Source: a virus. Taken from it: a DNA stretch of 64,000 bases. Under the pieces are notes generated by a model. That model was given only the letters and a program-made list of their open reading frames with translations. It was not told the DNA's origin and ran no database searches. Both the position numbers and the translations under genes were made by a program. Location of the stretch: the IMG/VR virus record IMGVR_UViG_3300015370_000013, positions 1-64,000 of that record; one strand, written 5' to 3'. This document shows, one piece after another, positions 9,555-30,717 of the stretch (positions are counted from its first letter, which is position 1; the number at the start of each line of letters is the position of its first letter).

Positions 9555-10991
9555 TTAATGATACCAACTCCTGTAGAGTTCAGGCTCTTTCCCTTGTGTA
9601 TGGAATAAAAGGTCTTCGTAGCGATCAGCTATTTCTCCGTAATCTCGCAGAGTCGTGGTTCGGTCAAAGGTTTTACCCCAAACGCCGATGGTTAAGTGGT
9701 TGTAGTGTGTGTTTAACGCGACGTAGCCTATTGCTGGTTCGCATGAACAGACGCAACTGGCGGCACGGACGTAGAAGTTATAGCTTACGTCACAGGACCG
9801 GTAAAGGAACTGCAACCACATACACAAGAGGTGGTTATACCGTGGAGGCGCTTCCGTTGTTAACTGCAACATCTCTTCGGGTAGCCACTCCAATAACTGT
9901 TGGTACGTGAAGAACCGATCGGTATGTCGCGCTTTCTTGGCTACACGTGTTACACGAAATTGGATGTTATCGTCCTTCAGTGCAACACACGCGACCGTGT
10001 AGAGGCATCGTTTAACTGTGAAATACACCCCACAGATATTTGCTATACCCCACAGTTCGTCTAGCGACACCTTGGCTTTCTCCAGGAGAGGCTGTACCAG
10101 CATCAAGGTTGTATCCGTCACCTGTTCCTCTGTCCACGCCCCGTGTTCACACGCGCTAGCCCAGTTTTTATTTCCACAGCGCTGTTCCACACAACAGTGT
10201 GCACACTGTGTCCGCAACATGTTGCGTGTTTTACCTGCGGCCTTGGATCGGTCTGAGAAATTACTGTGTGCCACCTCAACTTGCGTAAAATCATGTCTAT
10301 TTGAGGCGACCCAAAAGGGTGCTTCGGGACGTAGATAGTCCATCGCGGTCTGACTGAGGCGTGGAGAAACATATGTATGCCCCGCTACTTGCGTCTTCCA
10401 CGCGACCCACTCCTCAGCTTCGAGGTCTCCCTTGGTGGTGACGTATTCAGCGTTGAATTCCTCTTTAACCACGTCACCTCCCCTGAAAAGATGTTCTATG
10501 TGGGCTACAGGGTATTCAATCAACGGGAGGCTTAGTTGCGGTACAGTGTTGCACGGTACGGTGTGCCAAGGCACCCTGGGGGAGTTAAATATGAAGCAGT
10601 CCTCCTCACAGTTCCGACACTCCAAGAACTTTCGTAGCTGCAAACAAGAGTCAAAGAGCTGACCTACAGTGATGGTGTGTATACCCGTACCTGTGTCCAT
10701 ATAAATACGTGTACGTTCAGTCCAACCTTTAGGGTCAGGAAAACCCTTAAACGAGTTGGACACATGGAGTTTATCCGCAAGTAAAATACCCCACCGGGTC
10801 CCCTGAAATAGCTGAACCACGGTGGGGTCGCGTAATATACGTACAACAGCGTCGTGTGTTTGTGGGGGAGGATAAAACAACACCCCTGCGTGATTCACAC
10901 TATGACGTGATTGATAACGCCACCAAGGCGTATCGACGTCTATGGTGGCCTCACACATCGTCATTAGTTTTTCAGGGATTGGGTGTGGCAT
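9555..10991 (-). CDS. Cys/His-rich hypothetical protein, coupled downstream of the RT
   Basis: 478-aa ORF overlapping the RT stop by 20 nt; CRNCEEDC, CAHCCVEQRC..C. Confidence 0.75.
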   Translation of the reverse strand: MPHPIPEKLMTMCEATIDVDTPWWRYQSRHSVNHAGVLFYPPPQTHDAVVRILRDPTVVQLFQGTRWGILLADKLHVSNSFKGFPDPKGWTERTRIYMDTGTGIHTITVGQLFDSCLQLRKFLECRNCEEDCFIFNSPRVPWHTVPCNTVPQLSLPLIEYPVAHIEHLFRGGDVVKEEFNAEYVTTKGDLEAEEWVAWKTQVAGHTYVSPRLSQTAMDYLRPEAPFWVASNRHDFTQVEVAHSNFSDRSKAAGKTRNMLRTQCAHCCVEQRCGNKNWASACEHGAWTEEQVTDTTLMLVQPLLEKAKVSLDELWGIANICGVYFTVKRCLYTVACVALKDDNIQFRVTRVAKKARHTDRFFTYQQLLEWLPEEMLQLTTEAPPRYNHLLCMWLQFLYRSCDVSYNFYVRAASCVCSCEPAIGYVALNTHYNHLTIGVWGKTFDRTTTLRDYGEIADRYEDLLFHTQGKEPELYRSWYH

Positions 10992-12072
10992 CGTCGGCCT
11001 CCGCTACTTTAGCTAGTTCTGTTGTTGCCTGTTCTTCCGCCGCCAAGGCCAGTTTCACCGCGCCCAACATCTTCTTGAGTTTCGCCCCCCGTACATCCGA
11101 TATTGATGCGAAGTAGCTAATCTTCCCCTCCAGGTGTGAGAGGAATGATTCAGGCGGGTCCCATTGAAATCGGATGGCGTTGATGAGCAACCCTTCGGCG
11201 ACAGAGTCCCCGTTATGGAGACAGTTATGTAGAATGGCACGGTAGCGGCGATATACGTTACGTGGGATATTAGGTTTTTCATTGATGACGATTCCTAACA
11301 TCTTCTGTTGTCTCCAACGCCGCTGGACTTTGGTCTTCTTTGAATTCACACGGTAACCGTTGTCCTTGGCCAACTGTACTATCGTCCTGATGGTGTTGTT
11401 CACCACTTTACTCGGTAAATCGTCCTTGTGAGACAACTCAATGTCATCCGAATATCGCGTATACACCCAGCCCAATGGTCCTAAGCTTTCCAAGAGAGCG
11501 CGGTCCAGCGTCTCCTGTGCCATCAGGTTACAGAGCATGGGACTGGCGGGACTCCCCTGCGGGGTATAGTGCCGAGTCCCCTCTTGTACAGTACAGAGGT
11601 CCGCTAGGAGACTCGCAGTAGGATGGTTGTAGTTGTAGTGTGTTTTGAGAAACTGACGTACACGCGCACGACTATGCGACGGAAAGAAGTTCTTCAGGTC
11701 CATATGGATACACACCCCTGAACCTACGTGTAACAATGCACTGTCGACACAACTCTTCCCATCGACATATGCCCCTACACAGTCCAGTAGTGGGAACGAT
11801 TTTAGAAGACCTTCGTGAATTTTCTTTTGGATGTGTTTGATAACCGGCTCCGGCGCGTGAATGGGGCGACGACCGCCTGAACGTTTTGGGATAGTGAAGC
11901 GTTTATACATATATTCTTTGCGCCTCACACAGTACCAGAGGGTCTTACACCGAACACCCAGACGCAGTGCTAGAGAAAAGTCATCAAATACCCAGGGGAA
12001 GGGTTGTTGTAGGTACGCTTCATCCTCGGGGAGATCGATGTAACGAACGGTGGTTTGTTTATAGCTGCTCAT
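10972..12072 (-). CDS. Retron-like reverse transcriptase (divergent)
   Basis: IPKRSGGRRPIHAP, MDLKNFFPS, PQGSPASPMLCN, YTRYSDD, VNSKKT; retron region X SALLH (for NAxxH), region Y MLG (for VTG). Confidence 0.92.
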   Translation of the reverse strand: MSSYKQTTVRYIDLPEDEAYLQQPFPWVFDDFSLALRLGVRCKTLWYCVRRKEYMYKRFTIPKRSGGRRPIHAPEPVIKHIQKKIHEGLLKSFPLLDCVGAYVDGKSCVDSALLHVGSGVCIHMDLKNFFPSHSRARVRQFLKTHYNYNHPTASLLADLCTVQEGTRHYTPQGSPASPMLCNLMAQETLDRALLESLGPLGWVYTRYSDDIELSHKDDLPSKVVNNTIRTIVQLAKDNGYRVNSKKTKVQRRWRQQKMLGIVINEKPNIPRNVYRRYRAILHNCLHNGDSVAEGLLINAIRFQWDPPESFLSHLEGKISYFASISDVRGAKLKKMLGAVKLALAAEEQATTELAKVAEADDATPNP

Positions 12073-12688
12073 CTGCCTCTCCCGTATCGTCGTCTTGTTG
12101 GTCTCGGTGAAGCACTAATGAGGAGTAACATTCTTCATCCCCGAGGTTACATTTCCCGTTTATGTGGAGTAGATGCCGCGGACACGCCCTACAGATGGGA
12201 CGTATTGCTTTGCCCAACGCGTACAGCACCGTGTAGTCATCCAGTAACGTAGCCGTAGATACGCGACGGGCTGCAGCTGGAGATACGTGCTGGGACGCGT
12301 GTATGTACGCTGGTCCGTATTGTTTAGACTCTACCTGGTAGGTCCTGAAGATAGGGACCACGAGAAAATAGTTGTTGAGCTGCGGGACGTATGTCCGCAT
12401 CGCTCTTTGTCCCATTATTGTCCCGGAGAAGTGTTCCGGTAGCAACGGGTGGACACGCTGTTTGTTGGTCAAGTGCTCCACGCGATGTACATCGAGTTTT
12501 TCCAGGGCTTGCTGTACAGGCGTAGAGACGCTTAACACGAGACAATAATTAAACATATGAAGTATGTGCGCCTTGAGTTCGTGCGGCACCAGGTAGATGA
12601 GATCAAATGGGAAGACGCGAATCTTGGTAGCTGCGACTTTTATTTTGATGATTTGGTGTGTATGCACTGGAGGTTGTAGGGTGGTCAC
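12059..12688 (-). CDS. Hypothetical protein with C-terminal Cys cluster, coupled upstream of the RT
   Basis: Overlaps VWA stop and RT start; CRACPRH...C..C. Confidence 0.7.
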   Translation of the reverse strand: MTTLQPPVHTHQIIKIKVAATKIRVFPFDLIYLVPHELKAHILHMFNYCLVLSVSTPVQQALEKLDVHRVEHLTNKQRVHPLLPEHFSGTIMGQRAMRTYVPQLNNYFLVVPIFRTYQVESKQYGPAYIHASQHVSPAAARRVSTATLLDDYTVLYALGKAIRPICRACPRHLLHINGKCNLGDEECYSSLVLHRDQQDDDTGEADEQL

Positions 12689-14091
12689 TTTGTAAACGGC
12701 TCCATTCGGATGTGAATACCGTAATCCGGCGACGGGACAACACCGTCAGGTGTTAACAACCAAACTACGGGAATAGTGATGCGGTTTTCGGGTGCAGGTG
12801 CAGGAGCGAAACCGTCTGTAGCGTAAATGAAGATATCCGGAGCTTTGTCCGTGTGCATCAACTCCTGGATCTTGAGAAACGGCGGGTTAAAATCTGTGCC
12901 GCCCCGGCCTACGACGCCCCAGTCCACATCACCTGGAGATTTCACATCGTAAGTAATATGCAGCCAAGCATCACAGTACATGACAGTAATGCTGACATCC
13001 GAGTCAGCGCATGCGATACCAAGGAGTTCGCCCAGCGCCAGTTGAAGGTCGTCCGTGCTCATCGACCCAGAGGTGTCCAGGGCATATGCAATCGTGAATT
13101 TACGATCACGTGCACGCCCCGGGAAGGGTAGGATGCCCGGGATACCATGAGACCGGCGACTTGGCCGCGCCATACCACGTCCCACCTTGGTTTGCCGTGT
13201 ACGCTGACAGAGTGCCCGCAACACCTCAGGCCACGGGATGGTGGGGGGACGAAGCCACGATTCAATGAGGTCACGAACCTCACCCGGTACAGTGCCTCGG
13301 TCCTTAATACTGGACACTGCTTGACGGATAATGTTACGTGTTTCTTGTTTAACTTTCTCTGCGATACCTTGCAGTTCCTCAGGGGACAACCCCTCCAGTG
13401 CTTCTTCCCAGGTTTTGTGTGGGTTGCCTGTACGGTTTTCGAAGATCCGGTCCAGCGATACCATCCCGGTCTGTCCTTTGGTGATCTCTCCCTGCGGCCC
13501 CCGCCCCTGGTCTTCATGGGGTACAGCCAGGGTGTGCATCTTGCTCCCATCCGGCGCTGTGTCGATGTGGTCTTCCATCTTCGACAGGAGGGTGTACAGG
13601 TACAACTCCATGGACTCATCCACCGGCAACTGGAATTCATCCGGTAGAAGTGCTCCTCGGAAGTCGTTTTCTTGACACCCCATGAAGTAGGGGTACTCAG
13701 GCTGGTCTTTGAACTTGGGGGTTGCACGAATCAGTTCGTTGGCTGCGCAGTCCGTCGCCACATTCATCACAGACCGAAACTTGGCCCGCTCCAACGCGTC
13801 GGTGAGCCCCGAAAGGACGTTCAAGAACCGGGGAATGTGCCCCAGTAGGAGGTGTAGTACTTCGTGCTGACACACCATGACAAGCTGGTAAAACGAGCTG
13901 TTTTTAATGAACTCAGGGTCGAAGAAGAGGATAAATTTCCCCATCTTATCGATGCCCACCGCCATCGTACCGAGACCTGGTTTTTGGACGCGAACCATCG
14001 AACTGATGAGTCGAGCGTAGAAGTTTCGCTGTTGTGCACTCACCAAGTAGGTGAATGTATCCGACAGAGTCGGTTTCTGTACGTGTCCCAA
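12685..14091 (-). CDS. DUF2201-type metallopeptidase + VWA domain protein (MoxR partner)
   Basis: HEVLH..H, NVATDCAAN, ALDTSGSM (MIDAS), GRGGTDF, YATDG; likely TTG start at 14091 with AGGAGG. Confidence 0.88.
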   Translation of the reverse strand: MGHVQKPTLSDTFTYLVSAQQRNFYARLISSMVRVQKPGLGTMAVGIDKMGKFILFFDPEFIKNSSFYQLVMVCQHEVLHLLLGHIPRFLNVLSGLTDALERAKFRSVMNVATDCAANELIRATPKFKDQPEYPYFMGCQENDFRGALLPDEFQLPVDESMELYLYTLLSKMEDHIDTAPDGSKMHTLAVPHEDQGRGPQGEITKGQTGMVSLDRIFENRTGNPHKTWEEALEGLSPEELQGIAEKVKQETRNIIRQAVSSIKDRGTVPGEVRDLIESWLRPPTIPWPEVLRALCQRTRQTKVGRGMARPSRRSHGIPGILPFPGRARDRKFTIAYALDTSGSMSTDDLQLALGELLGIACADSDVSITVMYCDAWLHITYDVKSPGDVDWGVVGRGGTDFNPPFLKIQELMHTDKAPDIFIYATDGFAPAPAPENRITIPVVWLLTPDGVVPSPDYGIHIRMEPFTK

Positions 14092-14153
14092 AGAGACGCC
14101 TCCTTGATTTTTTTGGTGATTTCCCCTAGAGTTTAATTCAACAGGAGAATGCT

Positions 14154-15152
14154 GTGGCCACAATACATGACCAATACCATGACCCCGGAAGTGCAGGACT
14201 TTTTGTCTTACTAAGTACACATCCCGCGGTCGAAGAGTTCGTCAAACACGCGGCACTCGAATCAGATACAGCGGAGCAGCTGTCTGACCGGATGTTTGCG
14301 TGGCCTGCCAAGCGGCGCTTCCCTATCGACACTGCGGAAAACACTGTGCTTTCTTGCTTGTTCCGCACGAAGTGTGCCTCCAAAGTACCGACAGAGGTCG
14401 ATAACCTACTGACTCGTGCAGCTGAAGTTTACGGCGTACAACCGCTACTGGACCAAGTGAAGGAAGCAGCGGCTACGCCCCCGGCACTTGAAGGGGAATA
14501 CTTGCTCCCCCAACACAAGCGTCTGCGCGTGAACTCTGCTGCGGACGCGAAGCTGGCCGAACAACACCTCCTATGCGAGTACCGGCGCCTGGGCACTGAA
14601 GACCGTGTAATCGGCTTCACAAACCTCACAAAAGTGGCACAAGATTTTGGGGTTCAGTTGCAACCGGTGACACTACAAAAGGCGGGTATGACCCTCTGTA
14701 CCGGTAAAGTTGCTGCCGACCTGATCGAGGCCCGCCGCTGTGCTACCAAGGAACCCCTCTTCAAACACGCGTATACCCAGCTCGCCAACGCGTTTCGTGG
14801 TCGCGGTGAAATCCGGGACCGCGATGCTCTGGTAACGGCGGCGCAAGTCTTGGCCGAACTGGATCAACGCTCCGGCGTCGACAAGCTGTACGACAAGAAA
14901 GTACACGACCCCATTCAGACCATCTTTAACACGACCAAGGTGGCGGAAGAAACGCTGGACATTAACGGTCGGGCTATCTCAGTCGCTAAACTTGCAGCGT
15001 TACCGGCGTCCTTCTGGAACGACATTGTCGGTCCTGACTTCGGTCAGGCGTTGATGGACAAGACCGGCGCTATTGATGCACAACGCATCCGTGAGGTCGT
15101 CCCAACCCTTCCCCTGGACCTCAAGATTATCCTACGGCATCAGGTTCCATGA
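14154..15152 (+). CDS. Putative head/internal virion protein (K-x-A rich)
   Basis: 332-aa ORF; KHAA, KCAS, KEAA, KVAQ, KVAE, KLAA. Confidence 0.65.
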   Translation: MATIHDQYHDPGSAGLFVLLSTHPAVEEFVKHAALESDTAEQLSDRMFAWPAKRRFPIDTAENTVLSCLFRTKCASKVPTEVDNLLTRAAEVYGVQPLLDQVKEAAATPPALEGEYLLPQHKRLRVNSAADAKLAEQHLLCEYRRLGTEDRVIGFTNLTKVAQDFGVQLQPVTLQKAGMTLCTGKVAADLIEARRCATKEPLFKHAYTQLANAFRGRGEIRDRDALVTAAQVLAELDQRSGVDKLYDKKVHDPIQTIFNTTKVAEETLDINGRAISVAKLAALPASFWNDIVGPDFGQALMDKTGAIDAQRIREVVPTLPLDLKIILRHQVP

Positions 15153-15886
15153 GGGCGCTAGACGCTACTGTCCGAGACGTACTGGCGAAGCTCCCCAAGG
15201 CCCTCAAAGGTTCCAAAGGGGCGGCGATGAGTCTATTACAAGACGATGCCAGCTCCGCCTCCGGTATCTACGCAGCCCTTCGTGTTCTCTACAAACAGAA
15301 CTGGCTTCTTTGGGAGCACGAAACCGTCTGGGTTACGTTGCTAAAAGAAAGCGGCGTAAATCTTTCAAACAAAAACCGCCAGAAGGCTCTGGCCGCTAAA
15401 ACACTCCTAATGGTGCCTGCTTTCTGGTGGGACGCTGCTGTATTTGAAAACACAGCGTTAGCTTTCAACAGCGCCATCGTCGATGTAACAATCCTCCAAG
15501 AAGCTACACCCGGACAACTCAACTGGGCGGTGTTTGAAACGTCACTACTTTTTAATGCACTGGGGGATATCTCTGACACACCCGCCTTCGACTATGAACC
15601 TATGGGATACGCTGCGGCTGTGTTGCACAGAGCTGGGTTCATACAAGCACCGGAGTTCCTGTCATTTGCACAGGAGTCATTAACCAAACTAAACCGAGAC
15701 GGCACCTCCGTAACAGAAGATGCCGTTCGGTCAGCTTGGGATGATTACACAAAAGAGAAAACGAAAAGAGAACTCACGGATTCCTCACTGGACGTACAAC
15801 TTACACATCTCGCTACAGTGGACGCGTATATGGAGAAGCGCTTAAAGCGCTTGAACGCAGACCTGGAGCTGCTTACTTCGCAGTAA
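15149..15886 (+). CDS. Hypothetical protein (probable virion)
   Basis: ATGA overlap with previous ORF. Confidence 0.7.
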   Translation: MRALDATVRDVLAKLPKALKGSKGAAMSLLQDDASSASGIYAALRVLYKQNWLLWEHETVWVTLLKESGVNLSNKNRQKALAAKTLLMVPAFWWDAAVFENTALAFNSAIVDVTILQEATPGQLNWAVFETSLLFNALGDISDTPAFDYEPMGYAAAVLHRAGFIQAPEFLSFAQESLTKLNRDGTSVTEDAVRSAWDDYTKEKTKRELTDSSLDVQLTHLATVDAYMEKRLKRLNADLELLTSQ

Positions 15887-17294
15887 CTACCGGGTCCTTG
15901 GCGTCCTTGTCCAGCTCCGCCCGTACCCGCTGCATTGCCTCCCCGATACCGTCGAAGAGCTTCTGGTACGCAGGAAAGGCACACATGACCACGCTCATAT
16001 CCCCCAGATACGCGTCGCCGTTCTCCGCCTGCTCCGCTTGGTTCCCGAAGTGGTGCTCGATCATGCTCATAGCTAGTTCCGGCTTCAGGTCGGCGAGAAA
16101 GAGCACCACGTGCTCCGCGTAGGTCTGCGGATCGGCTTGCTCAGAGAACAGGGTCAGTGCGATACCCGCACACAGTTCGCCCAACGCGTCGTTCCGATTG
16201 GCCTCGATGAGCTTCCGCACGCGGGAGCGCACCTTGGACTTCTCGGTGTATTTGGTGATGACGTCCTTGGGCGCGATGACCACCTCATTGTTTGTGACGT
16301 ACGCCTGGAACATGGACGCGGTATCCATCCCGATACACCCACCGATAGCGCAGAACAGACCGTCGTTGTCGAGAGGCTGTTTGTGTGTTTCAGCAGATTT
16401 CAGGAGGTCGCTGACTTTTTCCCAGGTCGCGGGGCACGGGAACGCTTTTCCAGCGTCCCGCAACTTTCTGTCGTACAGCGCCGTGGGGTGCGCCTTGATG
16501 AACTCCACCACGTGGAAGTGGAACGCGCCCTGCCCGACATCTCCAGCGTAGCGAACCCACGCCTGCTCGTTGGGCGCGACAGCGATGAAGGATAAACGCC
16601 GACGAAAGGCGTAGTCTTTCTCCGCCTCGTTTACCGAGTAGGCGGAGTCGGACGGGTTCATCGCAGCGACGATCTGAACACCCATAGGAACCAGGTCGGT
16701 TCCGTGCACTCTGCGGTCCTCCAGGATGGTGAAGAACGCTTTTATAACGTGCTTGTCGGCCCGATTCCACTCGTCCAGGAACAGGATGCCCTCGGGCGGG
16801 AGGTCACGCAGGTTGCGCTCCACGAGAAACTCAAAAGTGTCCTCATCGAGCACATTGTTGTCGGCCAACGCTTGCTCCGCCAGCTGCAGTGCGTGCTCCC
16901 GAGCATGCTCACCGAAGCCGTTGCTACTCGCCGCGCCGATCCGCATGAAGAGGTCACACTCCTTCAGTAAGTCATTTCTGCGTGCGCGAGAGGGGTAGGG
17001 CACCCCGATGTCCTCCGCCTGCATGTGCGCCAGGTACAGGGCGATGACGGGGACGCTGGTCTCCCAGCGCTGTCCATGCCAATCAAAGGGCTCAACGGGG
17101 GTGCGGGACGCGGCGATTTGCCGCACGATGTGGGTCTTGCCGATGCCCGCGTCACCTACCAGACACGGGACGACATACGGGGTAAAGCGTGCGGCGTCGA
17201 TGCCCGCACGGGCACCGGCCAAGCCGGTTAGCCCTATACCCAATTTTGAGTAGAAAGTGTCTCCTGAAAGGGAGCTGTCAACGCCTTTGGACAT
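15873..17294 (-). CDS. MoxR-like AAA+ ATPase
   Basis: Walker A GDAGIGKT, Walker B LFLDEWNRA, IVAAMNP, AFRRR, PCPATWE; ATG 17294 with GGAGGT. Confidence 0.9.
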   Translation of the reverse strand: MSKGVDSSLSGDTFYSKLGIGLTGLAGARAGIDAARFTPYVVPCLVGDAGIGKTHIVRQIAASRTPVEPFDWHGQRWETSVPVIALYLAHMQAEDIGVPYPSRARRNDLLKECDLFMRIGAASSNGFGEHAREHALQLAEQALADNNVLDEDTFEFLVERNLRDLPPEGILFLDEWNRADKHVIKAFFTILEDRRVHGTDLVPMGVQIVAAMNPSDSAYSVNEAEKDYAFRRRLSFIAVAPNEQAWVRYAGDVGQGAFHFHVVEFIKAHPTALYDRKLRDAGKAFPCPATWEKVSDLLKSAETHKQPLDNDGLFCAIGGCIGMDTASMFQAYVTNNEVVIAPKDVITKYTEKSKVRSRVRKLIEANRNDALGELCAGIALTLFSEQADPQTYAEHVVLFLADLKPELAMSMIEHHFGNQAEQAENGDAYLGDMSVVMCAFPAYQKLFDGIGEAMQRVRAELDKDAKDPVVTAK

Positions 17295-17730
17295 GAAAAC
17301 CTCCACCACTCACACGGGAGTGGTTTACGTGATCCCCAAACAGGGGAATATTGGTTAAATAATGGTACGCACCGTCGGGATGTCCGAGGGCGTTTAGAAG
17401 TGCTGTTACATTGTTGGCGTCAGCCTCCCCACGTGTACGAAGTTTACTTGCTACGTATCCCGGGTCCAAGTAGCCCGCCAATTTCAGAGGGTAACTTCCT
17501 CCGAACTCAACCAGGCTGACATAACAGTAGCCCTTACAATCGTGTACACCACCCCCCATATGTAAAACAGTATCGTTGACCAGGAGGACCTGGTACCGGG
17601 TCCTTTGTGCCGCAAAGATGAGGAGAAGCGCACCCTTAGCCTGCAGTGCCTGCTTAGCTAATTCAATACGCGCTGGTTGCGTTAACCGGATTTCTTCTGT
17701 ATCCTCTATTTGTGTATCAGGAACTTCCAA
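17278..17730 (-). CDS. Hypothetical protein
   Basis: 150-aa ORF overlapping the MoxR start. Confidence 0.6.
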   Translation of the reverse strand: MEVPDTQIEDTEEIRLTQPARIELAKQALQAKGALLLIFAAQRTRYQVLLVNDTVLHMGGGVHDCKGYCYVSLVEFGGSYPLKLAGYLDPGYVASKLRTRGEADANNVTALLNALGHPDGAYHYLTNIPLFGDHVNHSRVSGGGFHVQRR

Positions 17731-19265
17731 GTTTGCCTCGTTCTGCGCTTGCGCAGCGTTTGTTGTATCTGGATGGTGCTCCCTTCAGATTGACGGACTA
17801 CCCCTTTTTTAAAGCTATCTATGACGGTGATTATCAGGGATTATTGTTAAAGTGCGGAAGACAGGTAGCAAAAAGTACTTCACTTTGTAACTTCATTATT
17901 ACTGAATGTATCGGTATTCCCCACTTTAAAACACTTTTCGTATCGCCGTCTCAAGAACAAACGCAGCGGTTCTCTAACACACGTTTAGGTAAGGTGGTCC
18001 ACTACTCACCACTTGTACGTCGATACTACGTGAGCAAGGATTTTACTGACAGGTCTATGCTCCGTATGTTTCAAAATGGTTCTGAGGTCGCATTGACGTA
18101 CGCGTCTGATGACCCCGACCGTGCACGGGGTCCTTCTGCTGACCGAGTGGCCTTTGATGAATGCCAGGATATTATGTATAATGAAGTTATCCCGGTTATC
18201 AACGAGTCAATGGGCAATTCAGAGTATGGCTACGAAACCTACGCAGGTACACCCAAGACGCTAGAGAACACCATCGAGTTTCTGTGGGGTATCTCCACAC
18301 AGAACGAATGGTTGATGCAGTGTGAGGGTTGTAAGAAGCACAACTTCATCACTAGCGTACGATCCATCGGGCTGCATGGTCCTATTTGTGTGAAATGCGG
18401 ACACGCACTCAACCCACGTAACGGGCGTTGGTATGCATTCAACCCCAAATCGGACCTACACGGCTTTCACATCTCTCAACCGATGCTCCCACGGAACGCT
18501 GAAGACCCTAAACGTTGGAAGCGTATCCGCAATAAACTGGACCGTTATTCCGACACTAAATTCAAAAACGAAGTGTTGGGTGTTTCAGATGCTATCGGCG
18601 CACGTTTGATCAGTAAAACTGAACTGGAGGCTTTGTGTGAAGACTATGACCTCTTCCGTCAACCTCCAGCTAACTTCCGTGACAATTACAGTCACGTCGT
18701 GGCGGGAATAGATTGGTCGGGGGGTGGTACTAAAGGCATCAGCCGTACTGTCGTGTGGGTATGGGGTATCACGAAAGACCAGCGATTACGCACCCTCTAC
18801 TTCCGTATTTACCCAGTAACTAACCCTGTACAGGTTGTTGACGATATCGTTGAGGTACTGAATAATTACACCGTTGAGTTGGTCGTAGGCGACCGCGGTG
18901 AGGGTTACTTAGCAAATACACTCCTCGCTGACCGTCTAGGTAAAAGTCGCGTTTACCAACTTAAATACGGTGCCCAAGCGAGCCCCATCGTTTGGAACGA
19001 GAAAGCCCTCTGTTACTTCGGGGACCGTACTATCTTGATGGATAACTACTTCATGGTACTGAAGCGCGGCGGCATAGTGTACCCACGCATTACGTACATG
19101 ACTGAAGCTATCAAAGACGTATTAAACATCTACGAAGAAGTAACGCGTGAGGGTAGGAAGGTTTGGCGTTGTGACCCTACCCTCAGCGATGATGCGTACC
19201 ATGCACAACTCTTTGGGTGGCTTGCAGCTAAATTCGTAATGATGGACCTGACGTTTACGGGGTGA
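17712..19265 (+). CDS. terL: Terminase large subunit (lambda GpA-like)
   Basis: GRQVAKST Walker A, RARGPSAD..FDE Walker B, GTPK, CxxC..CxxC, GFHISQ, nuclease AGIDW, DDAYHA. Confidence 0.9.
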   Translation: MYQELPSLPRSALAQRLLYLDGAPFRLTDYPFFKAIYDGDYQGLLLKCGRQVAKSTSLCNFIITECIGIPHFKTLFVSPSQEQTQRFSNTRLGKVVHYSPLVRRYYVSKDFTDRSMLRMFQNGSEVALTYASDDPDRARGPSADRVAFDECQDIMYNEVIPVINESMGNSEYGYETYAGTPKTLENTIEFLWGISTQNEWLMQCEGCKKHNFITSVRSIGLHGPICVKCGHALNPRNGRWYAFNPKSDLHGFHISQPMLPRNAEDPKRWKRIRNKLDRYSDTKFKNEVLGVSDAIGARLISKTELEALCEDYDLFRQPPANFRDNYSHVVAGIDWSGGGTKGISRTVVWVWGITKDQRLRTLYFRIYPVTNPVQVVDDIVEVLNNYTVELVVGDRGEGYLANTLLADRLGKSRVYQLKYGAQASPIVWNEKALCYFGDRTILMDNYFMVLKRGGIVYPRITYMTEAIKDVLNIYEEVTREGRKVWRCDPTLSDDAYHAQLFGWLAAKFVMMDLTFTG

Positions 19266-20238
19266 CGTAGCAAACACCTTTCTTAGATATCTTTTTACGT
19301 GCGGTTCTCGGCGATGTGCGTGTTGCAGAGTGGAGTTCCACTATTCAACGTGGCGCGGTACATCGCCGAGAACGGGCGAGTAAAAAGATTACCGTGCCTT
19401 GGGGCACAGATTTCCTGTGACGGCGTTACGCCATCCTCCCTCGCGAGGGTCTCTTTGACAAAGGTGAATGACACCACTTATCTACTGTTAGTGCAGTTTC
19501 GCAGATGGTCCAAAAGCCGTACCTTTGGCCCACGCTGCGAAGACGGAACAACAGTTAGAACCAAAAAGAAATGACGGCGTAGCACCGTCGGAAGCCTAGA
19601 ACACTAAGCCCCACGTATCTGGGATCACCCACTTGGATCTTCATGCACCACCTTGTTGGTGCACGAAGTCATTCCACTTCGATCCTCGACGCACTGCAGG
19701 TGCGGAGCATTTTGCGTAGCACTGCACGTGCAAGAGGGCTTTTCCACTTCATTTTCCGGAAGACTGCGGTCGCGCCGGTTTCTTGGCGAGACCGCAGTCT
19801 GCAGAAAATGTACTACTTCACATTCTTGCTAATTTCTTCTGAGTTCCAGATGTGGAGCTCGTGAAGACAAGGGTCCGCATAAACGTAATGTTTACGCAGT
19901 AAAGAGCGGCGTAACGCCGTTCCGCGCACTGAATTTCCAAGAATGTGTTTACGCAATTCACTGCCATTGCCCCCGGTACCCGTGGGTATCTTGGGTGTTG
20001 TTGTACCTTATCGTAGATAAAACAAACTATACGGCGTTACGCCGTACCTACCTTCTTAGACTGAATTGCGTGATTATTGCGTTGATGCGAAACTAAAAAT
20101 AGATAGGTATCGATTTACTACGATTTAGCTACGACGAGGCGCCGCGCGCGGAGGAGGAATTTCCCTGGTTTGCGAAGCAAAATAAAAAGTGTGAGCGTTG
20201 CACTCACTGTTAGCATTTATACTAAACCGATACTATCT
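19266..20238. ncRNA. ~1-kb highly structured non-coding region (candidate large ncRNA or RT template; alternatively origin/parS)
   Basis: Successive inverted repeats with perfect 10-14 bp helices, CCACTT(C) linkers, 4x CGGCG-N3-CGCCG; no credible ORF. Confidence 0.7.
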
Positions 20239-20247
20239 CTTATACCA
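20239..20247 (-). promoter_or_regulatory. Putative promoter motif TGGTATAAG pointing into the structured region
   Basis: Same 9-mer at 39861-39869 (-) and 63101-63109 (+); variant CGGTATAAG at 31410-31418 (-). Confidence 0.45.
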
Positions 20248-20258
20248 CACAACTACGC

Positions 20259-21101
20259 CTAGTTTTCGGGAGCAGCGGCGGCTTGTGTGCGTAGCATTTC
20301 TTCGGTGCGTTTGGCGCGGTCGATCATCATGGGTTCTTTTGTACTCGATGTGGGCATGAGACCCCTCTGTGTTTGACGCACCGTCTCAGGGCCGACAGTC
20401 ACCACACCGGCATCAGGGAACCCACCCTCAATGTGGTGATACGCAGCACGCATACGGAACTTGTAGTCCCCGTCGGCGTTGCGTTTGATGAACATCGGGT
20501 ATCCTGACGCCTCCGCCTCTTCCGGCACCGACTCACCGATGCTGGTGGATTTGTACAACGTAAAAATTCGACCGGCGAAAGCGATCGGGAGGTAGTGAAT
20601 GCGGTCGATTTGAATGTTGGGGTCGATCATGGCAGGGCTGAACAGGGTCACCTTGAGAGAGTCTTCTGTAAGCACCTGTCCGATAATGGGTCCTCGGAGC
20701 GTATGGAAGATACGGAGGGGGCGACCGTCGAGTTTAACGTCGAGGGTGTGGGTCACCGGTTCCCAGAAGGTCACACGCTGCAGGAGATCAGCCACAGGCG
20801 CATCCTCCGCCACGGGTAGCTCCATAGGCGGCTCTGTAGCTTCGACGCCTTCTATCGCAGCCTCAGGTTCAGGTGGAGGTACATCCGTTACGGTGATCAC
20901 ATCTGCTTCAGGAATCTGCTTTAATACACTAATGGGCATATCCGCAGTGATGGACCTCTTCCCGGTGAGCACTTCACGCAGCTCCAGGGTCATACCTTCA
21001 ATGATCACCCTGCGCACACGTGTTTCATGTGTTGTCCTCGCGGAATTCAGTTTGAACTTCTTCGTCGGAGAGGATTTCGTCCTCAGGGATTTCTGTGGCA
21101 T
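20259..21101 (-). CDS. Hypothetical protein
   Basis: Long ORF; likely ATG 21101 with AGGA RBS, overlapping the polA 3' end. Confidence 0.7.
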   Translation of the reverse strand: MPQKSLRTKSSPTKKFKLNSARTTHETRVRRVIIEGMTLELREVLTGKRSITADMPISVLKQIPEADVITVTDVPPPEPEAAIEGVEATEPPMELPVAEDAPVADLLQRVTFWEPVTHTLDVKLDGRPLRIFHTLRGPIIGQVLTEDSLKVTLFSPAMIDPNIQIDRIHYLPIAFAGRIFTLYKSTSIGESVPEEAEASGYPMFIKRNADGDYKFRMRAAYHHIEGGFPDAGVVTVGPETVRQTQRGLMPTSSTKEPMMIDRAKRTEEMLRTQAAAAPEN

Positions 21102-24069
21102 GGTGTTGTCCTTGTAGGTAGCGGTCAATGTCTGTTACTTGACCGTAGTTGGGACCAGCTTCAACGTCCCATAAAAACTTCACAGGTAACCAGGGGAACT
21201 GAACAGCTACGCGTTTAGTCCCGTATTCATACATCATAGGTTTTACTTGGGGGAGATACTCCGGCGGTACAGAAAATACAACAGAGTCGTGTACTGTCGC
21301 GTGGAGTTCTCCTCGCATGTCGTGCGTAATGATTGGGGCAATAGCGTTCATCACCCACAAAACAATATCCGAACTGGTAGCTTGTATTTTGAAGTTAACT
21401 GCTTGACGGTTGAATCTGTTCACCAAAGTACGTGCATGCGCCATCGGAAAGCGACGCTTACGCCCCGTCTTCGTGAACACATTTTTGAAAAACGTTACTT
21501 CATTTTGTGTAGAACGAATATACGCAGGGATGGACGGAAACATGTGGAACATTAAATTGATAACGTTCTGCGCTTCCGTCAAACTAATACCCGCAGTATC
21601 CGCTATCTTTGCAGCCATGGCACCGTAGAGTGTACCGAAAACAACGCGCTTACAGTTGGTCCTTTGTGCGACTAAAGCGTCAGCCCATTTGAATAGGTCC
21701 ACACCAAATGGTTTGGACGCGTCGGCTGCAACCGCGTACCACTGGTCAACCATGTCCCGCGCTTTCTGGACGTCCTCGTATGTCACCCCGAATACCTTTG
21801 AGGTAAAGAAGCTGTGCGCGTCAAGACCGTCGTTGAGCGCAGCGATGAGTTTCTCATCCATAGAATACGCGGAGAAGATGCGTACCTCGGCACCACGGGC
21901 ATCCGTATTAACTAACACCATCCCGGGTGGTGGCACAAAAATCTTTTTGATATTGTGCCCAGCTAACTTCTTCGGAATCACCTGCATATTCTCATTCGAG
22001 GATGAAAGACGCCCGGTAGACGTACCCGGTATATGAAACGACGCATGCATCCGTCCATCAATATGGGAGTTATCACGTATGTTAGCGAGGAACGCGTCCT
22101 TGGCTTTCGTCGCCTTACGGTATTTTAAGAGAACTCTCGGGAACTCATAGGCGTATGTTTTAGCGATGTACAACAGCGCCTTTTCATCCGTCTGAATTGA
22201 CCCTTTATTAGTACGCCGCGTGTCATCATTGATGGGGACTACCCCTCGTTGACCTGTGGCCTCATCGTGGAACCCACGCGAGAAGAGAACAGTAGCCACA
22301 TCTTTTGAACTGGCAATGGTAAATGTACCTGCCAAATCGTACAGTTTCTGCTGCGTAGCAGTGATCGTCTCACCAAGAAGCTGGTCCACCTCTTCCAAGT
22401 ACTCCAGGTCAATGGGAAACCCCGAATACTCCATTTGAGCCAACGTCTTACTGGTCGGTAATATGTGAAAAGGCATCAGGCTACGCACAGGTCGTACATC
22501 AGCGTAGTAAACTGGAGAACGCTTGCGTGCGGCTAAGTCCTGCTTGTACTCGATGTCAAACCGCTGGTTCTGATGTAATAGGTGCTGCCGTGTAACGTCC
22601 GGGTCAATGGCGGCGTACAATTCCAGCTCCGGGATAGGAATCTTCGTGAAGTCAAACGGCTCTTGCAGTACGGGTTCTTTTGGTTCTTTAACGGGTTTTG
22701 GTTTACGTGGTTTCGGCCCAACATTCTGCTTCACAGCCATCCGCCGTTTTTCTGCTCTTGCGTTCACTTTCTCAGCAGCACGTTTCTCCGTCCATTTATC
22801 TAACGCAGCGGTATACGCGACGTACTCTCGGTCATGGGCGTCCATCTTGGCTGAGAAGATTGTGAGTGCTTCTTGGTAGCTACGTAAATCCTTACGGTAC
22901 TTTTTCCGAGACGATGCACGCGTCACGTTGCCGTGTTTCTCCCGCGCTTCATTGACCTTATCATCGTACCCAGCGTATTTAGGAAGACGTGACTTGGTGA
23001 GGTTCTTCAAACCGTACTCACCTTTTTTATCTTCTTCCAACAGGTGTTCACCACACATAGTGTCCCAAACTACATTTCGTAAACGCCAACCATACCGGTG
23101 TGTTAAAACCTGACGGTCAAATTTATCGTTATGTAGCACTTTGGGTTTCGGACACTCCACTACTTCTCGTACACACTGAAATACGATTTTTAGTTCTTCA
23201 GGCGTCCACCACACGTCGGGATGATCCAATATGATAGTGGTAGCGAAGCCCGGTTCCCAAGAGAAAGAGATAGCGATCATCTTGGATGTAGGATCGTACA
23301 TCTCCAACATCGTCGTTTCAGTGTCAACACCTATTAGGTGGTGCTCTGGAGGTGCTCCCTCATGGTGGTAGTTAATAATCATCTCACAGACGCGACGCAC
23401 CTCTTCCACTGTGTGTGGGAATATGTAGTTTTGCGACAACGCAGTAACGTCGAGTACCTGCTTTGCCGCACGTTTACCTTCGGCGTATAGAAACGCTTTA
23501 CGCAGGTCGCGTATTAACTCCTGGTACAGTCCCGGTTGACCTAGAATGGCACGCGGCGAATACGTTACAAAGAGCTGACAGAGGTGTGGAGGGTCAGAAC
23601 TTCGCTGTACGTAATCAATGAAAGTCCCACGTATAGCGGAAAACTTCACCGGGTGTTTGAGCAACGCTTTGGTGGCCATTGCCCCAAAACTCACGATAAC
23701 TTTTGGACGTGTTTGTTGTATGGTGGTGTCCAGAAGTACCCCACAAGCAGTGACCGCAGCCTGTGGGGGCTCTTTTTCCGACGTGCACTGCGCCGCGTAT
23801 GTTTCATGTAGTGGGAGTGAGGCCCAGCGTTCGGGACCTCCCGGTGTTTTGAAGTACATCCCTCGAAGTTGTTGAATCGCCATCTGTATGGGACGACCTG
23901 CACGGTCTGTAAACGGCTTACTCAACGTGGGAGATGCGGTTTGTGGATAATCACCTACCAGTAGAACAGCAGCAGTACTAGCTCCCGCTGAGGCTATACG
24001 TAGTTGTGTATAGTTCGGACATACACAACACGTAGGTGGTTTATTGTTGGTGTTAATAGTCGAAATCAT
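21025..24069 (-). CDS. polA: Family A DNA polymerase with N-terminal uracil-DNA-glycosylase-like domain and 3'-5' exonuclease
   Basis: N-terminal CxxC..VLLVGDYP..PFTDRAG..PKVIVSFG; Exo DTETT, HNDKFD, YAAID; Pol TGRLSS, DARGAEVR, KRVVFGTLYG, NFKIQ, VHDS. Confidence 0.93.
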   Translation of the reverse strand: MISTINTNNKPPTCCVCPNYTQLRIASAGASTAAVLLVGDYPQTASPTLSKPFTDRAGRPIQMAIQQLRGMYFKTPGGPERWASLPLHETYAAQCTSEKEPPQAAVTACGVLLDTTIQQTRPKVIVSFGAMATKALLKHPVKFSAIRGTFIDYVQRSSDPPHLCQLFVTYSPRAILGQPGLYQELIRDLRKAFLYAEGKRAAKQVLDVTALSQNYIFPHTVEEVRRVCEMIINYHHEGAPPEHHLIGVDTETTMLEMYDPTSKMIAISFSWEPGFATTIILDHPDVWWTPEELKIVFQCVREVVECPKPKVLHNDKFDRQVLTHRYGWRLRNVVWDTMCGEHLLEEDKKGEYGLKNLTKSRLPKYAGYDDKVNEAREKHGNVTRASSRKKYRKDLRSYQEALTIFSAKMDAHDREYVAYTAALDKWTEKRAAEKVNARAEKRRMAVKQNVGPKPRKPKPVKEPKEPVLQEPFDFTKIPIPELELYAAIDPDVTRQHLLHQNQRFDIEYKQDLAARKRSPVYYADVRPVRSLMPFHILPTSKTLAQMEYSGFPIDLEYLEEVDQLLGETITATQQKLYDLAGTFTIASSKDVATVLFSRGFHDEATGQRGVVPINDDTRRTNKGSIQTDEKALLYIAKTYAYEFPRVLLKYRKATKAKDAFLANIRDNSHIDGRMHASFHIPGTSTGRLSSSNENMQVIPKKLAGHNIKKIFVPPPGMVLVNTDARGAEVRIFSAYSMDEKLIAALNDGLDAHSFFTSKVFGVTYEDVQKARDMVDQWYAVAADASKPFGVDLFKWADALVAQRTNCKRVVFGTLYGAMAAKIADTAGISLTEAQNVINLMFHMFPSIPAYIRSTQNEVTFFKNVFTKTGRKRRFPMAHARTLVNRFNRQAVNFKIQATSSDIVLWVMNAIAPIITHDMRGELHATVHDSVVFSVPPEYLPQVKPMMYEYGTKRVAVQFPWLPVKFLWDVEAGPNYGQVTDIDRYLQGQHHATEIPEDEILSDEEVQTEFREDNT

Positions 24070-27000
24070 CCCCGTCTACTCCTTCACCCGACTTAACAAT
24101 CTTTAAAGTGGACGTGTTACCTTGTTTATTCTTTTGTATAGAAGTAGGGGGTGTGGGAAATGTAGTACTTTTTACGTGAAACTCGTCTTCCATGTCACCG
24201 AAAGAGGCGGGAGTTTCGCGCCCTTTTGGGCGCACGTCGTAACCAGAAGCCATGGACGCTGTTAGTTCATTCATATTAAAAGCACTGATGTCTCGCCAAC
24301 TAGCGTGTGCTCCTATGAACGGTTTCAAGCGATCCAACACACCGCTGGTCCGCGCTATTTCATCAGATATGTGGTACGGACTTCTCTTGGACTGCTGTTT
24401 AAGGCGCTCCGGTGACTCTCCCCGGAAAGGTGTGGAAGTGCGTTGTAAAAGTGTAGATTGCACCGTTGTCCACCGAATAAGCAACCACTGGTTTTGCGTA
24501 TCAAAGTAGAACCCACTATTAGAGTGGTTTAACTCTCCAGGATCGTTCCCCGCCAAAATACTGCTTAACATCTTGGGCCGAGGGTCGTCGATGTCTTGTG
24601 TATCAATTGCGGGTGTGTGTAACAGGGTGTCAATGAGATCCGTGCTCAAAGAGATTTGAGAGATACGCTCTAAATCAGAACGGGTAGCGTGGAAGAAGTC
24701 TTTTGCGTGCCGTTTATAGTCGTAACCACACGCCTTCATTACCGCCCATACAGCGTAGTGATTAACACGGCTTCGTGCAATTTCACCAAACTCCAAACCC
24801 CCACCACTGCTGAACTCGTCCTGTATTTCCTGGAAGCATTTGTACACCTTATAGGCGAGGCGGAAGGCAACCAACGTCAACTGATGACGTATCTCTGTAA
24901 TCTTTTTGTCGCCGTAGCGTTCTAGTAAAATGTCTTGCGGTGTTTTACGATATTTTTGTGTAGCCATCTCAACCATGAGATACCTGGAAATATCCGCAGC
25001 ATCTCGGGGAGTACGTATACCCGCTAAACATACAGGGAACCGAGCTACAAACTCCTGAGAGTATCCCCCCGCTGTACCGTAAACCGTAGTAACAGATTCG
25101 TGCACCATACCTCGAAACTCTTGCTGTAAGTGGCGTGCTTGTACGCTCCGGCGATCGTTGGTCCCCTTGTCTTCGAACTCATCCAAACACAGCGCCATGT
25201 GGCAGTGATTCATGCTTTGGCGTACACCAGCTGCACTGTAGTTATCCATGAAAATAGCGTGCTGTACTATGTTTATACGTGGCTGCTTGGACCTACCTAT
25301 GAACCCACCCAAGATACTCGATTTACCACTTGCGTGGTCCGCGGTGAACATCAACATGGGAAGCATCGGAATACAATCTGCAATACATAGAGAGAAAGCC
25401 CACGCAGATAAGTACTCACACGTCACCTGGTGGTTTTTAAATTCCCACCCGTAGTACAGCATCTCTTGGATTATTTTTAGTATCTCCAGCGGAGAGTAGA
25501 GCGGTTCAGCGTTTAGATCCGCAGCTGTTCGAATTTGCGGACATACGATTTTTGGCACCCTGGGTGTCATCCACGCGACCATATGTTCATCTGCAGGACC
25601 GGGAAGTTCACGCCATATCGGGTGGTCATCGCGCTCGAAATCTCCACGATACATTTTGGGACCGTTTACGAAGTAAAGTCGGAAATCGCCGTCTTTTGCA
25701 GCAGGGTCAATCATGGGTGCTACACAATGTAGACCCGCACCAGCATACCGGATCTGTGACGTCCTGGGGAGCATACCAGCTAACCGAGAAACCGCTTTAT
25801 CCAGGTAGACGAGATATATCGCGGTATTCTTTTGGTACACTAATGCATCTTTGGTATCTTCGTATTTTGGAAGAAACCCCGGCTCACCTACATCGTCCAG
25901 AATGAATTTGAAAAAGTCTTTACCAACAGCGACTTCCAGGTTGGAACGGATAGCTTTAATATCTGCAACAGGTAAACGTACTATGGACTTACTCTCGGTG
26001 TCCCAACACTCTAGTACGTTTTGATAACGCTCAACTACCATGCGTAAAATATGTAATCGACTAGCCAAAACATTTTTGAGACGTTCAATAAATGCTTCTT
26101 CGTACTCATCACCTGTACGAATAGCACTAATGATTTGTCCCTGGTTTACCTCTGGGAACTGACGGATAATCTCTGAGGTGTAAGCTTGTTGCTCCGCCTG
26201 GTTACGTACGTATCTCCCCCACTCCGCTGCGATGTTCGTCAATATACGTACGTCATCCGGAGGAACACCGTGCATGTTCTTGGCTGCGTTATTTGCTGCC
26301 CATGCATGTGGTAGAAGGTAGTTATCTTCACGACACACCTCCTTCTCCACAACCAGCGACCCGAATGTTGTAATCGCCTTATCTAAATCTAACCCGTTTG
26401 CGGTGGGTGTTGAGATAGATGTTGCTAGGCGTAACGCTTGAGGCCATACAAAGATCCGTGCACCTACTTTTGCTGTGTGGCTTAGAACCGTTTTTATGAA
26501 GTTCTCCCCTCCTTCGTCACAATCCCCAATAATGTAACCCCGTTCGAAACCAAACGGGTGTAGTACGTCCAAACCTGTAGTGCTGGAACCTCCACCACTA
26601 AAAATGAAAAAGTTAATATTCCCAGTAGTGAATTGGTTACTAAAGACAGATAGTGCGTCGAATTCCCCTTCAACCAACATAAACGAACGCATCTCTTTAC
26701 TAGCGAATAATGGGTGGTAAACAGGGGTGCCGTAGAGACCAAACAACCCATTATGTGGAACCATCTCATCGGTAATAAAACGCATTTCTTTGGTCGTAGC
26801 ATACGACTTACCTACGAACTGAGGGATACGGCGTAGTTTAATCTTACAAGGGTCAGTTGGAGATAACCCTGTAAAGAACGCCAAGGAACCGATCCAGTGT
26901 GACCCTTCAAGGACATCTTCAAGGTATCTGACCGCGGCGTTCCCGTAGTCGTCCCCTCCGTGAGTAGATGCGTACAGTGATAAGAGGTGCCGAAGGCGGT

Positions 27001-29646: not shown

Positions 29647-30717
29647 CTACAGGGTTTTAAGGCCGGAAGCGATTTCCAACCCTTCAGCAACACCCTTCCA
29701 GTAGTTTTGTTTATCCGAGGATTTCGCCCGAGATTGACGCTCGTAGACCGTTGCTAACGAGTCCTTCAACGCCGTCACCTTCATGGGTGTTACTTTAGCG
29801 CTGCGCAGATTCGCTAACGCAGTGTCGAGTCCTTGCCGTGCCAAGTTGGGTTTACCTGCAGCATCCTCAGCGTTAGCGATGTTCGCAGCTTTACCGCGTG
29901 GTTTCTTTGTACTTGCAGCAGCTCGGGTCTGTTCTGCAGCCGCCTTTACATCCTTCGTTTGGATGGTGCCGCCCTTCATCAGTTGACGAAAAACTGACAG
30001 CTGTTTTGCGGTACCTTCAATCTCCAACAGCGTCCGTGCTTGGGTGAACGTGAATCCACCTTTCCGCATCTCCGTTTGCACTTCAGACGGCAACTCCAGC
30101 AACTTCAACCGCTGACTGATGTGTCCCTGCGTTTTACCAAACTTCTCGGACAACATTTTAGCGGTGAAAGGGACTTCTTTATCCGGCGCTTTACCAACAC
30201 CTTTGATGGTGGTCTTTTGCCCCAACAGAGATTTAAATGCTTCTCCCTCTTCCAGCTCATTGAGGTCCGCGCGCTGCATGTTCTCTTGCACGCGGGCAAC
30301 CATCGCTTCGGTCGCTGTGCCGCAGAACCAGCACACACGTGCGGTCTTCGCTTTGAGCAGCTTCAATGCACGGAGCCGCCGCTCACCTGCCACGAGGTAG
30401 ATGTACCCATCCTCAGGGTCTTTCCGCACAATCAGAGGCTGTAGAAGCCCATCTGTTTGGACGGAATTCATTAGATTTTTCAGCTCCTCCCGGTCGAAGT
30501 CTTTCCGCGGGTTGTCACCCACGATGACATTAATCTCCGAAAGGGGGATTTCCGCATCAGCTTCTTTCCTTTCCGGAGGAGGAGGCGATTCCTTGGGAGC
30601 CGCTTTCTTGGGCGTCTTGGAAGCTACCTTCTTGGGAGCAGCTTCTTCGGAAGCAGCTTCTTCGGGCGCAGCTTCTTTGGTGATTTCAAGCACGCTCGCT
30701 TCTACAGCATCAGACAT
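29647..30717 (-). CDS. parB: ParB/Spo0J-family protein
   Basis: NPRKDFD, GLLQPLIVR, LVAGERRLRA, ENMQRADLN, HTH LSEKFGKTQGHISQRLKL. Confidence 0.9.
   Translation of the reverse strand: MSDAVEASVLEITKEAAPEEAASEEAAPKKVASKTPKKAAPKESPPPPERKEADAEIPLSEINVIVGDNPRKDFDREELKNLMNSVQTDGLLQPLIVRKDPEDGYIYLVAGERRLRALKLLKAKTARVCWFCGTATEAMVARVQENMQRADLNELEEGEAFKSLLGQKTTIKGVGKAPDKEVPFTAKMLSEKFGKTQGHISQRLKLLELPSEVQTEMRKGGFTFTQARTLLEIEGTAKQLSVFRQLMKGGTIQTKDVKAAAEQTRAAASTKKPRGKAANIANAEDAAGKPNLARQGLDTALANLRSAKVTPMKVTALKDSLATVYERQSRAKSSDKQNYWKGVAEGLEIASGLKTL

Follow-up and report, generated by a model that had tools for sequence, protein, structure and literature searches.

A modular structured element between convergent terminase and DNA polymerase A genes of large uncultivated phages, a candidate minus-strand non-coding RNA gene

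Large structured non-coding RNAs (ncRNAs) of phages are, to our knowledge, few, and their roles are unknown. GOLLD and ROOL are large 'ornate' RNAs that are often found in phages or prophages beside tRNA genes. The ncRNAs of known retrons, on the other hand, directly adjoin the gene of their reverse transcriptase (RT) and measure 150-250 nt. Here we describe a kilobase-scale structured element located between the terminase and DNA polymerase genes of an uncultivated phage, of whose kind no description was found in the literature. The reading that we favour, at somewhat less than an even chance, is that it constitutes a separate minus-strand ncRNA gene with its own promoter, whose product is a modular accessory stable RNA that acts through linker-hairpin repeats.

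The source contig (95.7 kb, IMG/VR) is about 53% complete according to CheckV, and the window, that is, the whole stretch of DNA analysed, comprises its first 64 kb (64,000 nt). The phage is present in groundwater metagenomes; it is uncultivated, with an estimated genome of ~180 kb, and belongs to a clade whose complete members measure 180-198 kb. Between positions 19266 and 20258, a gap of 993 nt separates two convergent transcription units. To its left lies the gene of the terminase large subunit (TerL; 17712-19265, plus strand; Pfam GpA_ATPase and Terminase_6N), with its stop at 19265, and to its right the UDG-PolA/primase operon, whose last gene (20259-21128, minus strand, stop at 20259) encodes a 289-aa protein without family. 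The sequence-only reading had singled out this ~1-kb region as the largest non-coding gap of the window, and the gap is indeed the largest ORF-free stretch not only of the window but of the entire 95.7-kb contig. A protein-coding gene was rejected, as the longest ORF measures 91 aa and none of the 31 open frames of at least 25 aa is conserved in the gaps of the relatives (best E 0.006 over 10-40 aa). A tRNA or tmRNA gene was rejected as well, since ARAGORN detects no cloverleaf in the window. In the surroundings of the gap, searches of Pfam, NCBIfam, PADLOC and PHROG gave no family for the neighbouring proteins (289, 150, 209 and 478 aa, among others). The DNA polymerase A (PolA; 21025-24069, minus strand) begins with a domain of the uracil-DNA-glycosylase superfamily and also has a 3'-5' exonuclease domain, and a ParB-like protein (ParB_N and HTH_ParB; 29647-30783, minus strand) is encoded 6 kb beyond it. 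A TnpB/IS605 OrfB-family gene (OrfB_IS605, Cas12f1-like TNB and HTH) occupies positions 5857-7059 of the minus strand.

The same reading had proposed that the region is folded from end to end, and this proposal withstood comparison with dinucleotide shuffles on both strands. The plus strand folds at -370 kcal/mol (shuffles -295 +/- 5.7; z -13.2) and the minus strand at -398 kcal/mol (z -10.0). Across the window and its relatives, neither folding energies nor z-scores favour one strand consistently, and the density of perfect hairpins of at least 6 bp per 800 nt does not single out the gap. Every helix that had been read by eye was recovered by an inverted-repeat search, the pairing of 20101-20117 with 20223-20238 being seen in the minimum free energy (MFE) folds. 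As for known families, Rfam gives no match in the gap at gathering score in the 64-kb window, in agreement with the earlier failure to recognise one. At E<=10, positions 19100-20400 give four chance-level matches (miRNA, lncRNA and snoRNA models, E 0.7-9), and seven relatives searched at E<=1 give nothing. This lack of a covariance-model match rules out GOLLD, ROOL and any other curated family.

The relatives of the locus are 80 IMG/VR loci, recovered through TerL searches, from a large clade of uncultivated phages. TerL faces PolA in all of them, and the spacer between the two varies from a 4-nt overlap to lengths above 1.5 kb. A minus-strand ORF of 160-200 aa takes up part of this spacer in many relatives. 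Spacers free of any ORF are found in no fewer than eight sub-clades, among relatives with as little as 46% TerL identity, and all of them are strongly structured (z -3.5 to -15). The length of the element varies from ~90 nt to ~1.5 kb and its sequence also evolves fast. Some lineages lack the element, which is thus dispensable. In three genomes without the gap (G006, G007 and G008) the other ORF-free stretches of ~1 kb are unstructured (z about -1), and no relocated copy was found in the gap-lacking relatives, whose contigs are 49-80% complete. Outside the clade, a blastn search of the gap against 50,697 GenBank phages returned no match; the nearest cultured TerL proteins, those of Salmonella phage Arash and Vibrio phage D69, share 31-32% identity with it and are followed by ordinary genes. 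Two relatives, L004 and L005, have an unusually long TerL frame (L004:3453-6113 and L005:3390-6071; 886-893 aa vs 517-531 aa elsewhere), to which the TerL of the window aligns only from residue 148-162 on, so that the N-terminal part holds a large insertion, possibly an intein.

Alignment of the whole gap across sub-clades is unreliable, and the interior is unalignable even inside sub-clades. The closest relative, L010 (81% TerL identity), gives a single blastn match of 68 nt, its modules being nevertheless recognisable by eye. In individual comparisons of relatives, compensatory changes maintain the pairing. Between L012 and L013 they affect 18 of 197 pairs, the linkers being conserved and the apical parts variable, and L006 and L007 differ by 19-23 such pairs. 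Close relatives diverge in patches and by insertion or deletion of whole modules, the linkers and stem bases remaining unchanged, and modules are gained and lost singly. In the short versions of 90-200 nt, the start of the RNA pairs with the end that adjoins the TerL stop in a 12-bp closing helix, 5 of whose 12 pairs are compensatory around a hypervariable interior; the promoter-proximal 138 nt of the window form a closed domain of this same 5'/3' type. The clearest single case is the hairpin at 19573-19589, homologous in six genomes, in which 3-4 of the 7 pairs show double changes and the covariation score reaches 0.52 (0.26 in shuffles, with none of 500 as high). Targeted hypermutation was considered for a divergent 200-nt patch between L003 and L004 and rejected, because a similar patch lies inside a neighbouring gene, which looks like ordinary mosaic recombination. 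The contig of L003 (G001, 197,792 nt) repeats its last 100 nt at position 40 of its start, so this assembly is circular or terminally redundant, though classed 'linear'. The assembly graph of the DNA run X2 branches at 20159-20188, with a minor variant (depth ~10 vs 108) that has a different sequence left of 20159, indicating that strains with differing versions of the structured region co-exist.

The place of the element may also be taken by other genes. After the TerL stop, three relatives carry minus-strand genes for tRNA-Ala(TGC) and tRNA-Gln(TTG) (L053:5598-5745, L056:5598-5669 and L082:1324-1470). In these three the promoter-like motif TGGTATAAG precedes a small ORF, behind which the tRNA-Gln and tRNA-Ala genes abut the TerL stop. 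In L017, a conserved ORF of ~163 aa (5835-6326, minus strand) that matches no known family separates PolA from the promoter of the short hairpin RNA; it and its homologues in L020, L024, L026, L023 and L078 were recognised by the 3-nt periodicity of conserved columns.

In the window, TGGTATAAG, a motif of the extended -10 type, lies on the minus strand at 20239-20247, 12 nt past the stop of the 289-aa gene. It occurs three times in the window, where 0.31 copies are expected, and five times in the contig. Four of these five copies occupy intergenic positions a short way in front of genes and are themselves preceded, at a distance of 11-18 nt, by AAAAAAC, so that the motif has the appearance of a promoter class used by this phage. 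In ~25 of ~50 non-redundant relatives it recurs where the non-coding stretch borders the PolA side, always on the minus and never on the plus strand. The other copies are found at 39861-39869 (minus) and 63101-63109 (plus) in the window and at 80639 and 94635 (both minus) in the contig; the motif often comes directly after a terminator hairpin, and the complete relative G003 has eight copies, all on one strand. Transcription from 20239-20247 would start near 20232 and read towards TerL.

Evidence on the strand also comes from the pairing itself. Read on the minus strand, the homologues of hairpin 19573-19589 are paired in 42 of 42 cells, one pair appearing as C-G, U.G or U-A; on the plus strand, 92.9% are paired and C.A mismatches arise. 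In local hairpins with a single mismatch, read on the plus strand, A.C exceeds G.T in the gaps (30 vs 17), whereas the coding flanks show 21 vs 35. A global strand test on 1x1 mismatches in folds without G.U pairs (A.C 55 vs G.T 50) was uninformative. Taken together, five lines (enrichment of the motif, its position, the strand of the tRNAs, hairpin pairing and mismatch bias) point weakly to the minus strand. Against a simple RNA made from one strand, local hairpins show no clear preference for G.U over other mismatches, single-sided changes between L006 and L007 divide just 55:45 for the minus strand, and the bias in loop composition favours the plus strand. A G.U preference as weak as this, together with the 55:45 division, is not usual in an RNA that is under selection on a single strand.

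A hint of transcription comes from the groundwater metatranscriptome run X5, in which contigs cover 19621-19831 and 19999-20255. These contigs have an indel in common with the DNA from that study, whose run X2 contains the phage at ~108x. They give no information on strand or ends, and DNA carry-over into the library is possible. Over the flanking genes (14000-26000), the one match in X5 is partial, 32 nt long, and comes from a contig of foreign origin, the absence of contigs being uninformative on expression; runs X3 and X4 yield no more than scattered pieces of low depth.

Read along the minus strand, the gap resolves into a succession of modules. The first is the promoter-proximal closed domain (20101-20238), in which MFE folds pair 20223-20238 with 20101-20117 around three small hairpins. 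Within it, at 20181-20207, the terminator scan detected the hairpin GTGAGTG-CAA-CGCTCAC followed by a U-run, conserved in L010, which looks like the terminator of the PolA operon. A terminator-like hairpin only ~25 nt past the inferred start counts against the reading that we favour. Two multibranch domains follow. That at 19951-20071 is closed by a perfect 10-bp helix (I16; 19951-19960/20062-20071, 100% paired) and contains a triloop hairpin at 20029-20047, to which the palindrome CGGCG-N3-CGCCG attests; hairpins of this CGGCG-N3-CGCCG type number four in the window, all within the gap. The domain at 19819-19947 has a closing helix of 10-16 bp (I6; 19819-19834/19932-19947), which still pairs in L010 via changes on both sides, as read from the sequences. 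Its twin triloop hairpins (19890-19921) form the most conserved segment of the gap, are the sole blastn match to L010, and are also common to L003-L005.

The domains are followed by a long hairpin at 19750-19810 (helix I2; 19753-19776/19785-19808), spanned by the RNA-library contig 19621-19831, and by hairpin modules at 19684-19737 (seen in folds, with D5 arms) and 19639-19668 (I12; 19639-19650/19657-19668). After these come the 7-bp triloop hairpin 19573-19589, which is followed by a U-run on the RNA, a hairpin or multibranch module at 19481-19559 (I4, around 19484-19504/19535-19555, and folds), and two small hairpins at 19392-19435, of which one spans 19392-19409 and the other is a triloop palindrome at 19418-19435. 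The series ends in a 100-nt near-perfect hairpin adjoining the TerL stop (19289-19389), composed of helices I14 (19289-19298/19380-19389; 10 bp) and I5 (19304-19317/19360-19373; 14 bp), both 100% paired. This hairpin is likely to mark where the RNA ends on its 3' side, to terminate the TerL mRNA, or to do both.

Modules are joined by a short recurring linker, present in five copies on the minus strand between 19474 and 19822 (starts at 19474, 19629, 19674, 19744 and 19813), each between two modules. On the plus strand it reads YYACTTNNNN or YYACTTCGTT (CCACTTC in the window), corresponding to approximately AACGAAGURG on the RNA, and it directly precedes five or six modules in that orientation. 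Other sub-clades have different recurring motifs in its place. In a complete 198-kb relative, four copies lie in the gap and four elsewhere, the latter being about the number expected by chance; since the motif is confined to this locus, a role as a genome-wide promoter was ruled out. Across the relatives, 192 of ~500 perfect hairpins have 3-nt loops, and GNRA or UNCG tetraloops are not enriched. Such a choice of loops is atypical for large natural RNAs and counts against the favoured reading. On the plus strand, the loops G-TAA-C, G-TAG-C and C-GNA-G are far commoner than their complements.

It could be argued that all this belongs to one 'ornate' RNA comparable to GOLLD or ROOL, which would fold or assemble as a whole and in which the modules would be peripheral parts of one architecture. 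Its size, long-range closing helices and multibranch domains would agree with such an RNA, as would the phage origin and the tRNA genes in the slot of relatives; in addition, a weak, G.U-rich helix is predicted to close the whole of the inferred 967-nt molecule through its 5' and 3' ends. We nevertheless regard this explanation as quite improbable. A conserved core is absent, lengths run from ~90 nt to 1.5 kb with interiors that cannot be aligned inside sub-clades, and modules come and go one by one. Moreover, Rfam offers no match, and in the ensemble of the inferred RNA just 29% of the bases have a partner at p>0.9.

The position of the gap between convergent genes raises another alternative, namely that it has no separate function and is an insulating zone of bidirectional terminators and 3'-end stabilisers. 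The minus strand contains seven terminator-like sites (a GC-rich hairpin plus a U-run) where 1.9 are expected, and both transcripts could finish at the hairpin that adjoins the TerL stop. Since hairpins would be required on both transcripts, such a zone would also account for pairing of the Watson-Crick type only, and the near-symmetric mismatch spectrum is in line with it. However, the terminator-like sites explain few of the hairpins, and their minus-strand bias is found in the window and in L010 but not clade-wide, T-runs being absent in most relatives. Other convergent pairs of this phage abut or overlap without any spacer (9554/9555, 15886/15873 and 1381/1349), and TerL and PolA themselves overlap by 4 nt in some relatives. 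A terminator zone is contradicted both by such spacer-free junctions elsewhere in the phage and by the conserved promoter-like motif directed into the region, and termination has no need of locus-specific conserved linkers or multibranch domains. For these reasons we give it a low probability, on a par with that of the single ornate RNA.

Lower still do we place the possibility that the element works at the level of DNA, as a replication origin or pac region in which the 10-nt motif would supply iterons for protein binding and the inverted repeats would form DNA hairpins by extrusion. This would suit the position between terminase and replication genes, the triloops and Watson-Crick-only stems, and the linker itself, a direct repeat in one orientation that differs by sub-clade as the sites of a co-evolving protein would. 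Against it, in neither of two complete relatives does the cumulative GC skew reach an extremum at the gap, and no AT-rich unwinding region exists (GC 0.49 vs ~0.52 for the genome). Nested long-range multibranch helices with compensatory changes fit a folded single strand, and the promoter motif and RNA-library contigs also argue against a DNA element, as do its dispensability in some lineages and the tRNA genes and ORF that fill the slot elsewhere.

A different type of explanation involves the RT of the phage. A retron-type RT is encoded at 10972-12072 on the minus strand (PADLOC RT_XIII, 6.7e-73; NCBIfam retron models, 1e-57). Its operon, whose genes overlap, is formed by a DUF2201/VWA gene (12685-14220), a 209-aa gene (12059-12688), the RT and a 478-aa gene (9555-10991). 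The RT was detected in each of the 10 relatives examined, lying 5-6 kb from TerL in every case. It is conceivable that the minus-strand RNA is the template of this RT in trans and is copied, as a whole or one module at a time, into plus-sense single-stranded DNA hairpins, as a giant or multi-unit msDNA-like product. Beyond the conservation of the RT in the clade, its operon leaves no room for an adjoining msr-msd, and pairing of the 5' and 3' ends, comparable to a1/a2, closes the RNA or its first domain. Pairing at the Watson-Crick level with no clear privilege for G.U is what would be expected if both RNA and cDNA fold, and on the plus (cDNA) strand the loops belong to the C-GNA-G and G-TNR-C types. 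Triloops of the d(cGNAg) type are very stable in DNA. The attraction of the idea lies in that it would reconcile the opposing strand signals: if true, it would account jointly for the Watson-Crick-only stems, the DNA-type triloops of the plus strand and the G.U wobbles of the minus strand. It would also imply a phage-borne msDNA system of kilobase scale or multiple units whose RT partner lies 7 kb away, and it makes the locus a concrete candidate for the first trans-acting template of a phage-encoded RT.

The idea is weakened by the persistence of the RT in relatives where TerL and PolA abut without a gap (L066, L080 and L051), together with the failure to find a relocated copy, or an equivalent structured region elsewhere, in the contigs of gap-lacking relatives that were searched. 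In addition, the adjacency to the RT and the modest size typical of retron ncRNAs are missing, neither a branching-G context nor an msr-like conserved part was recognised, and the slot carries an ORF and tRNAs in other relatives. We consider a trans template unlikely, if less so than the explanations discussed above.

The minus-strand ncRNA gene remains our preferred reading. As to the ends of the transcript, its processing, its partner and its biological role, we infer the following sequence of events. The phage promoter TGGTATAAG would give rise to an RNA of ~0.95 kb running towards the TerL stop, which would fold into roughly a dozen hairpin and multibranch modules with single-stranded linkers between them. 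The locus would be an accessory cargo slot with a common promoter across the relatives, whose content may be a closed hairpin RNA of 90-200 nt, a string of modules of 0.5-1.5 kb, or a small ORF plus tRNAs, the slot being empty in some lineages. The RNA would be stable and abundant and would work via its repeats. Since a repeated linker accompanies each hairpin, a phage or host factor may recognise the linker-plus-hairpin units and bind or cut every one of them. By binding them, this factor would turn the RNA into a multivalent decoy, sponge or scaffold; by cutting them, it would release small hairpin RNAs, in a manner similar to the processing of the tRNAs of the slot. A role in the interaction with the host is suggested, moreover, by how variable the locus is and by its tRNA cargo in relatives. 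In sum, the locus is real, conserved, structured and non-coding, probably transcribed, and outside the described RNA families. It would represent a new, uncurated class of structured RNA in a widespread clade of uncultivated phages of ~180-200 kb, with an unusual anatomy that combines exchangeable modules, a locus-specific linker, 3-nt loops, a conserved promoter of its own and a slot of the tRNA type. Anatomy and slot would point to an RNA-based function in host takeover or counter-defence.

Several known systems offer terms of comparison. A CRISPR array, with near-identical direct repeats of at least 23 nt and unique spacers of regular size, was rejected, as the gap has only a degenerate motif of ~10 nt at irregular spacings of 45-155 nt. 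REP/BIME elements share with the gap the clustering of imperfect palindromes, the short conserved linkers and the location between convergent genes; however, REPs form one sequence family dispersed over the genome, whereas each hairpin of the gap is unique and its motifs are restricted to the locus.

The sequence-only reading had also been reminded of an extended msd, and the likeness to retron msr-msd RNAs comprises an RT in the same genome block, closure by paired ends, long Watson-Crick hairpins and a fast-varying interior. Here, by contrast, the RT (10972-12072) lies 7 kb from the gap (19266-20258), with opposite-strand genes that include TerL in between, no branching-G context was identified, and the gap RNA is 4-6 times longer than any retron ncRNA of which we know. 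Co-occurrence fails as well, for the RT is kept in 10 of the 10 relatives searched, three of them without any gap. An a1/a2-like closing helix is found in the short versions, where it covaries, and in the first domain of the window, a feature that is not specific to retrons.

The sequence-only reading had been reminded of the GOLLD/ROOL class by size and complexity. That resemblance stands in that the element is hundreds to a thousand nucleotides long, structured, non-coding, phage-borne and of unknown function, and the setting recalls these RNAs because tRNA genes share the transcription unit in relatives (none in the window; in the slot of L053, L056 and L082). Membership of either family is not supported, and the gap RNA differs from GOLLD and ROOL in lacking a conserved core and in its exchangeable modules, repeated linker, 3-nt loops and 15-fold range of length.

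Finally, multi-site regulatory sponges of the CsrB/RsmZ type and multi-unit precursors such as the tRNA/stable-RNA cluster of T4 and the type III toxI repeats differ from the element in that its motif, AACGAAGURG, is not GGA and its units are not identical repeats. In layout alone the resemblance holds: a repeated single-stranded motif beside hairpins within one transcript, a promoter of its own, and a slot that bears tRNAs.
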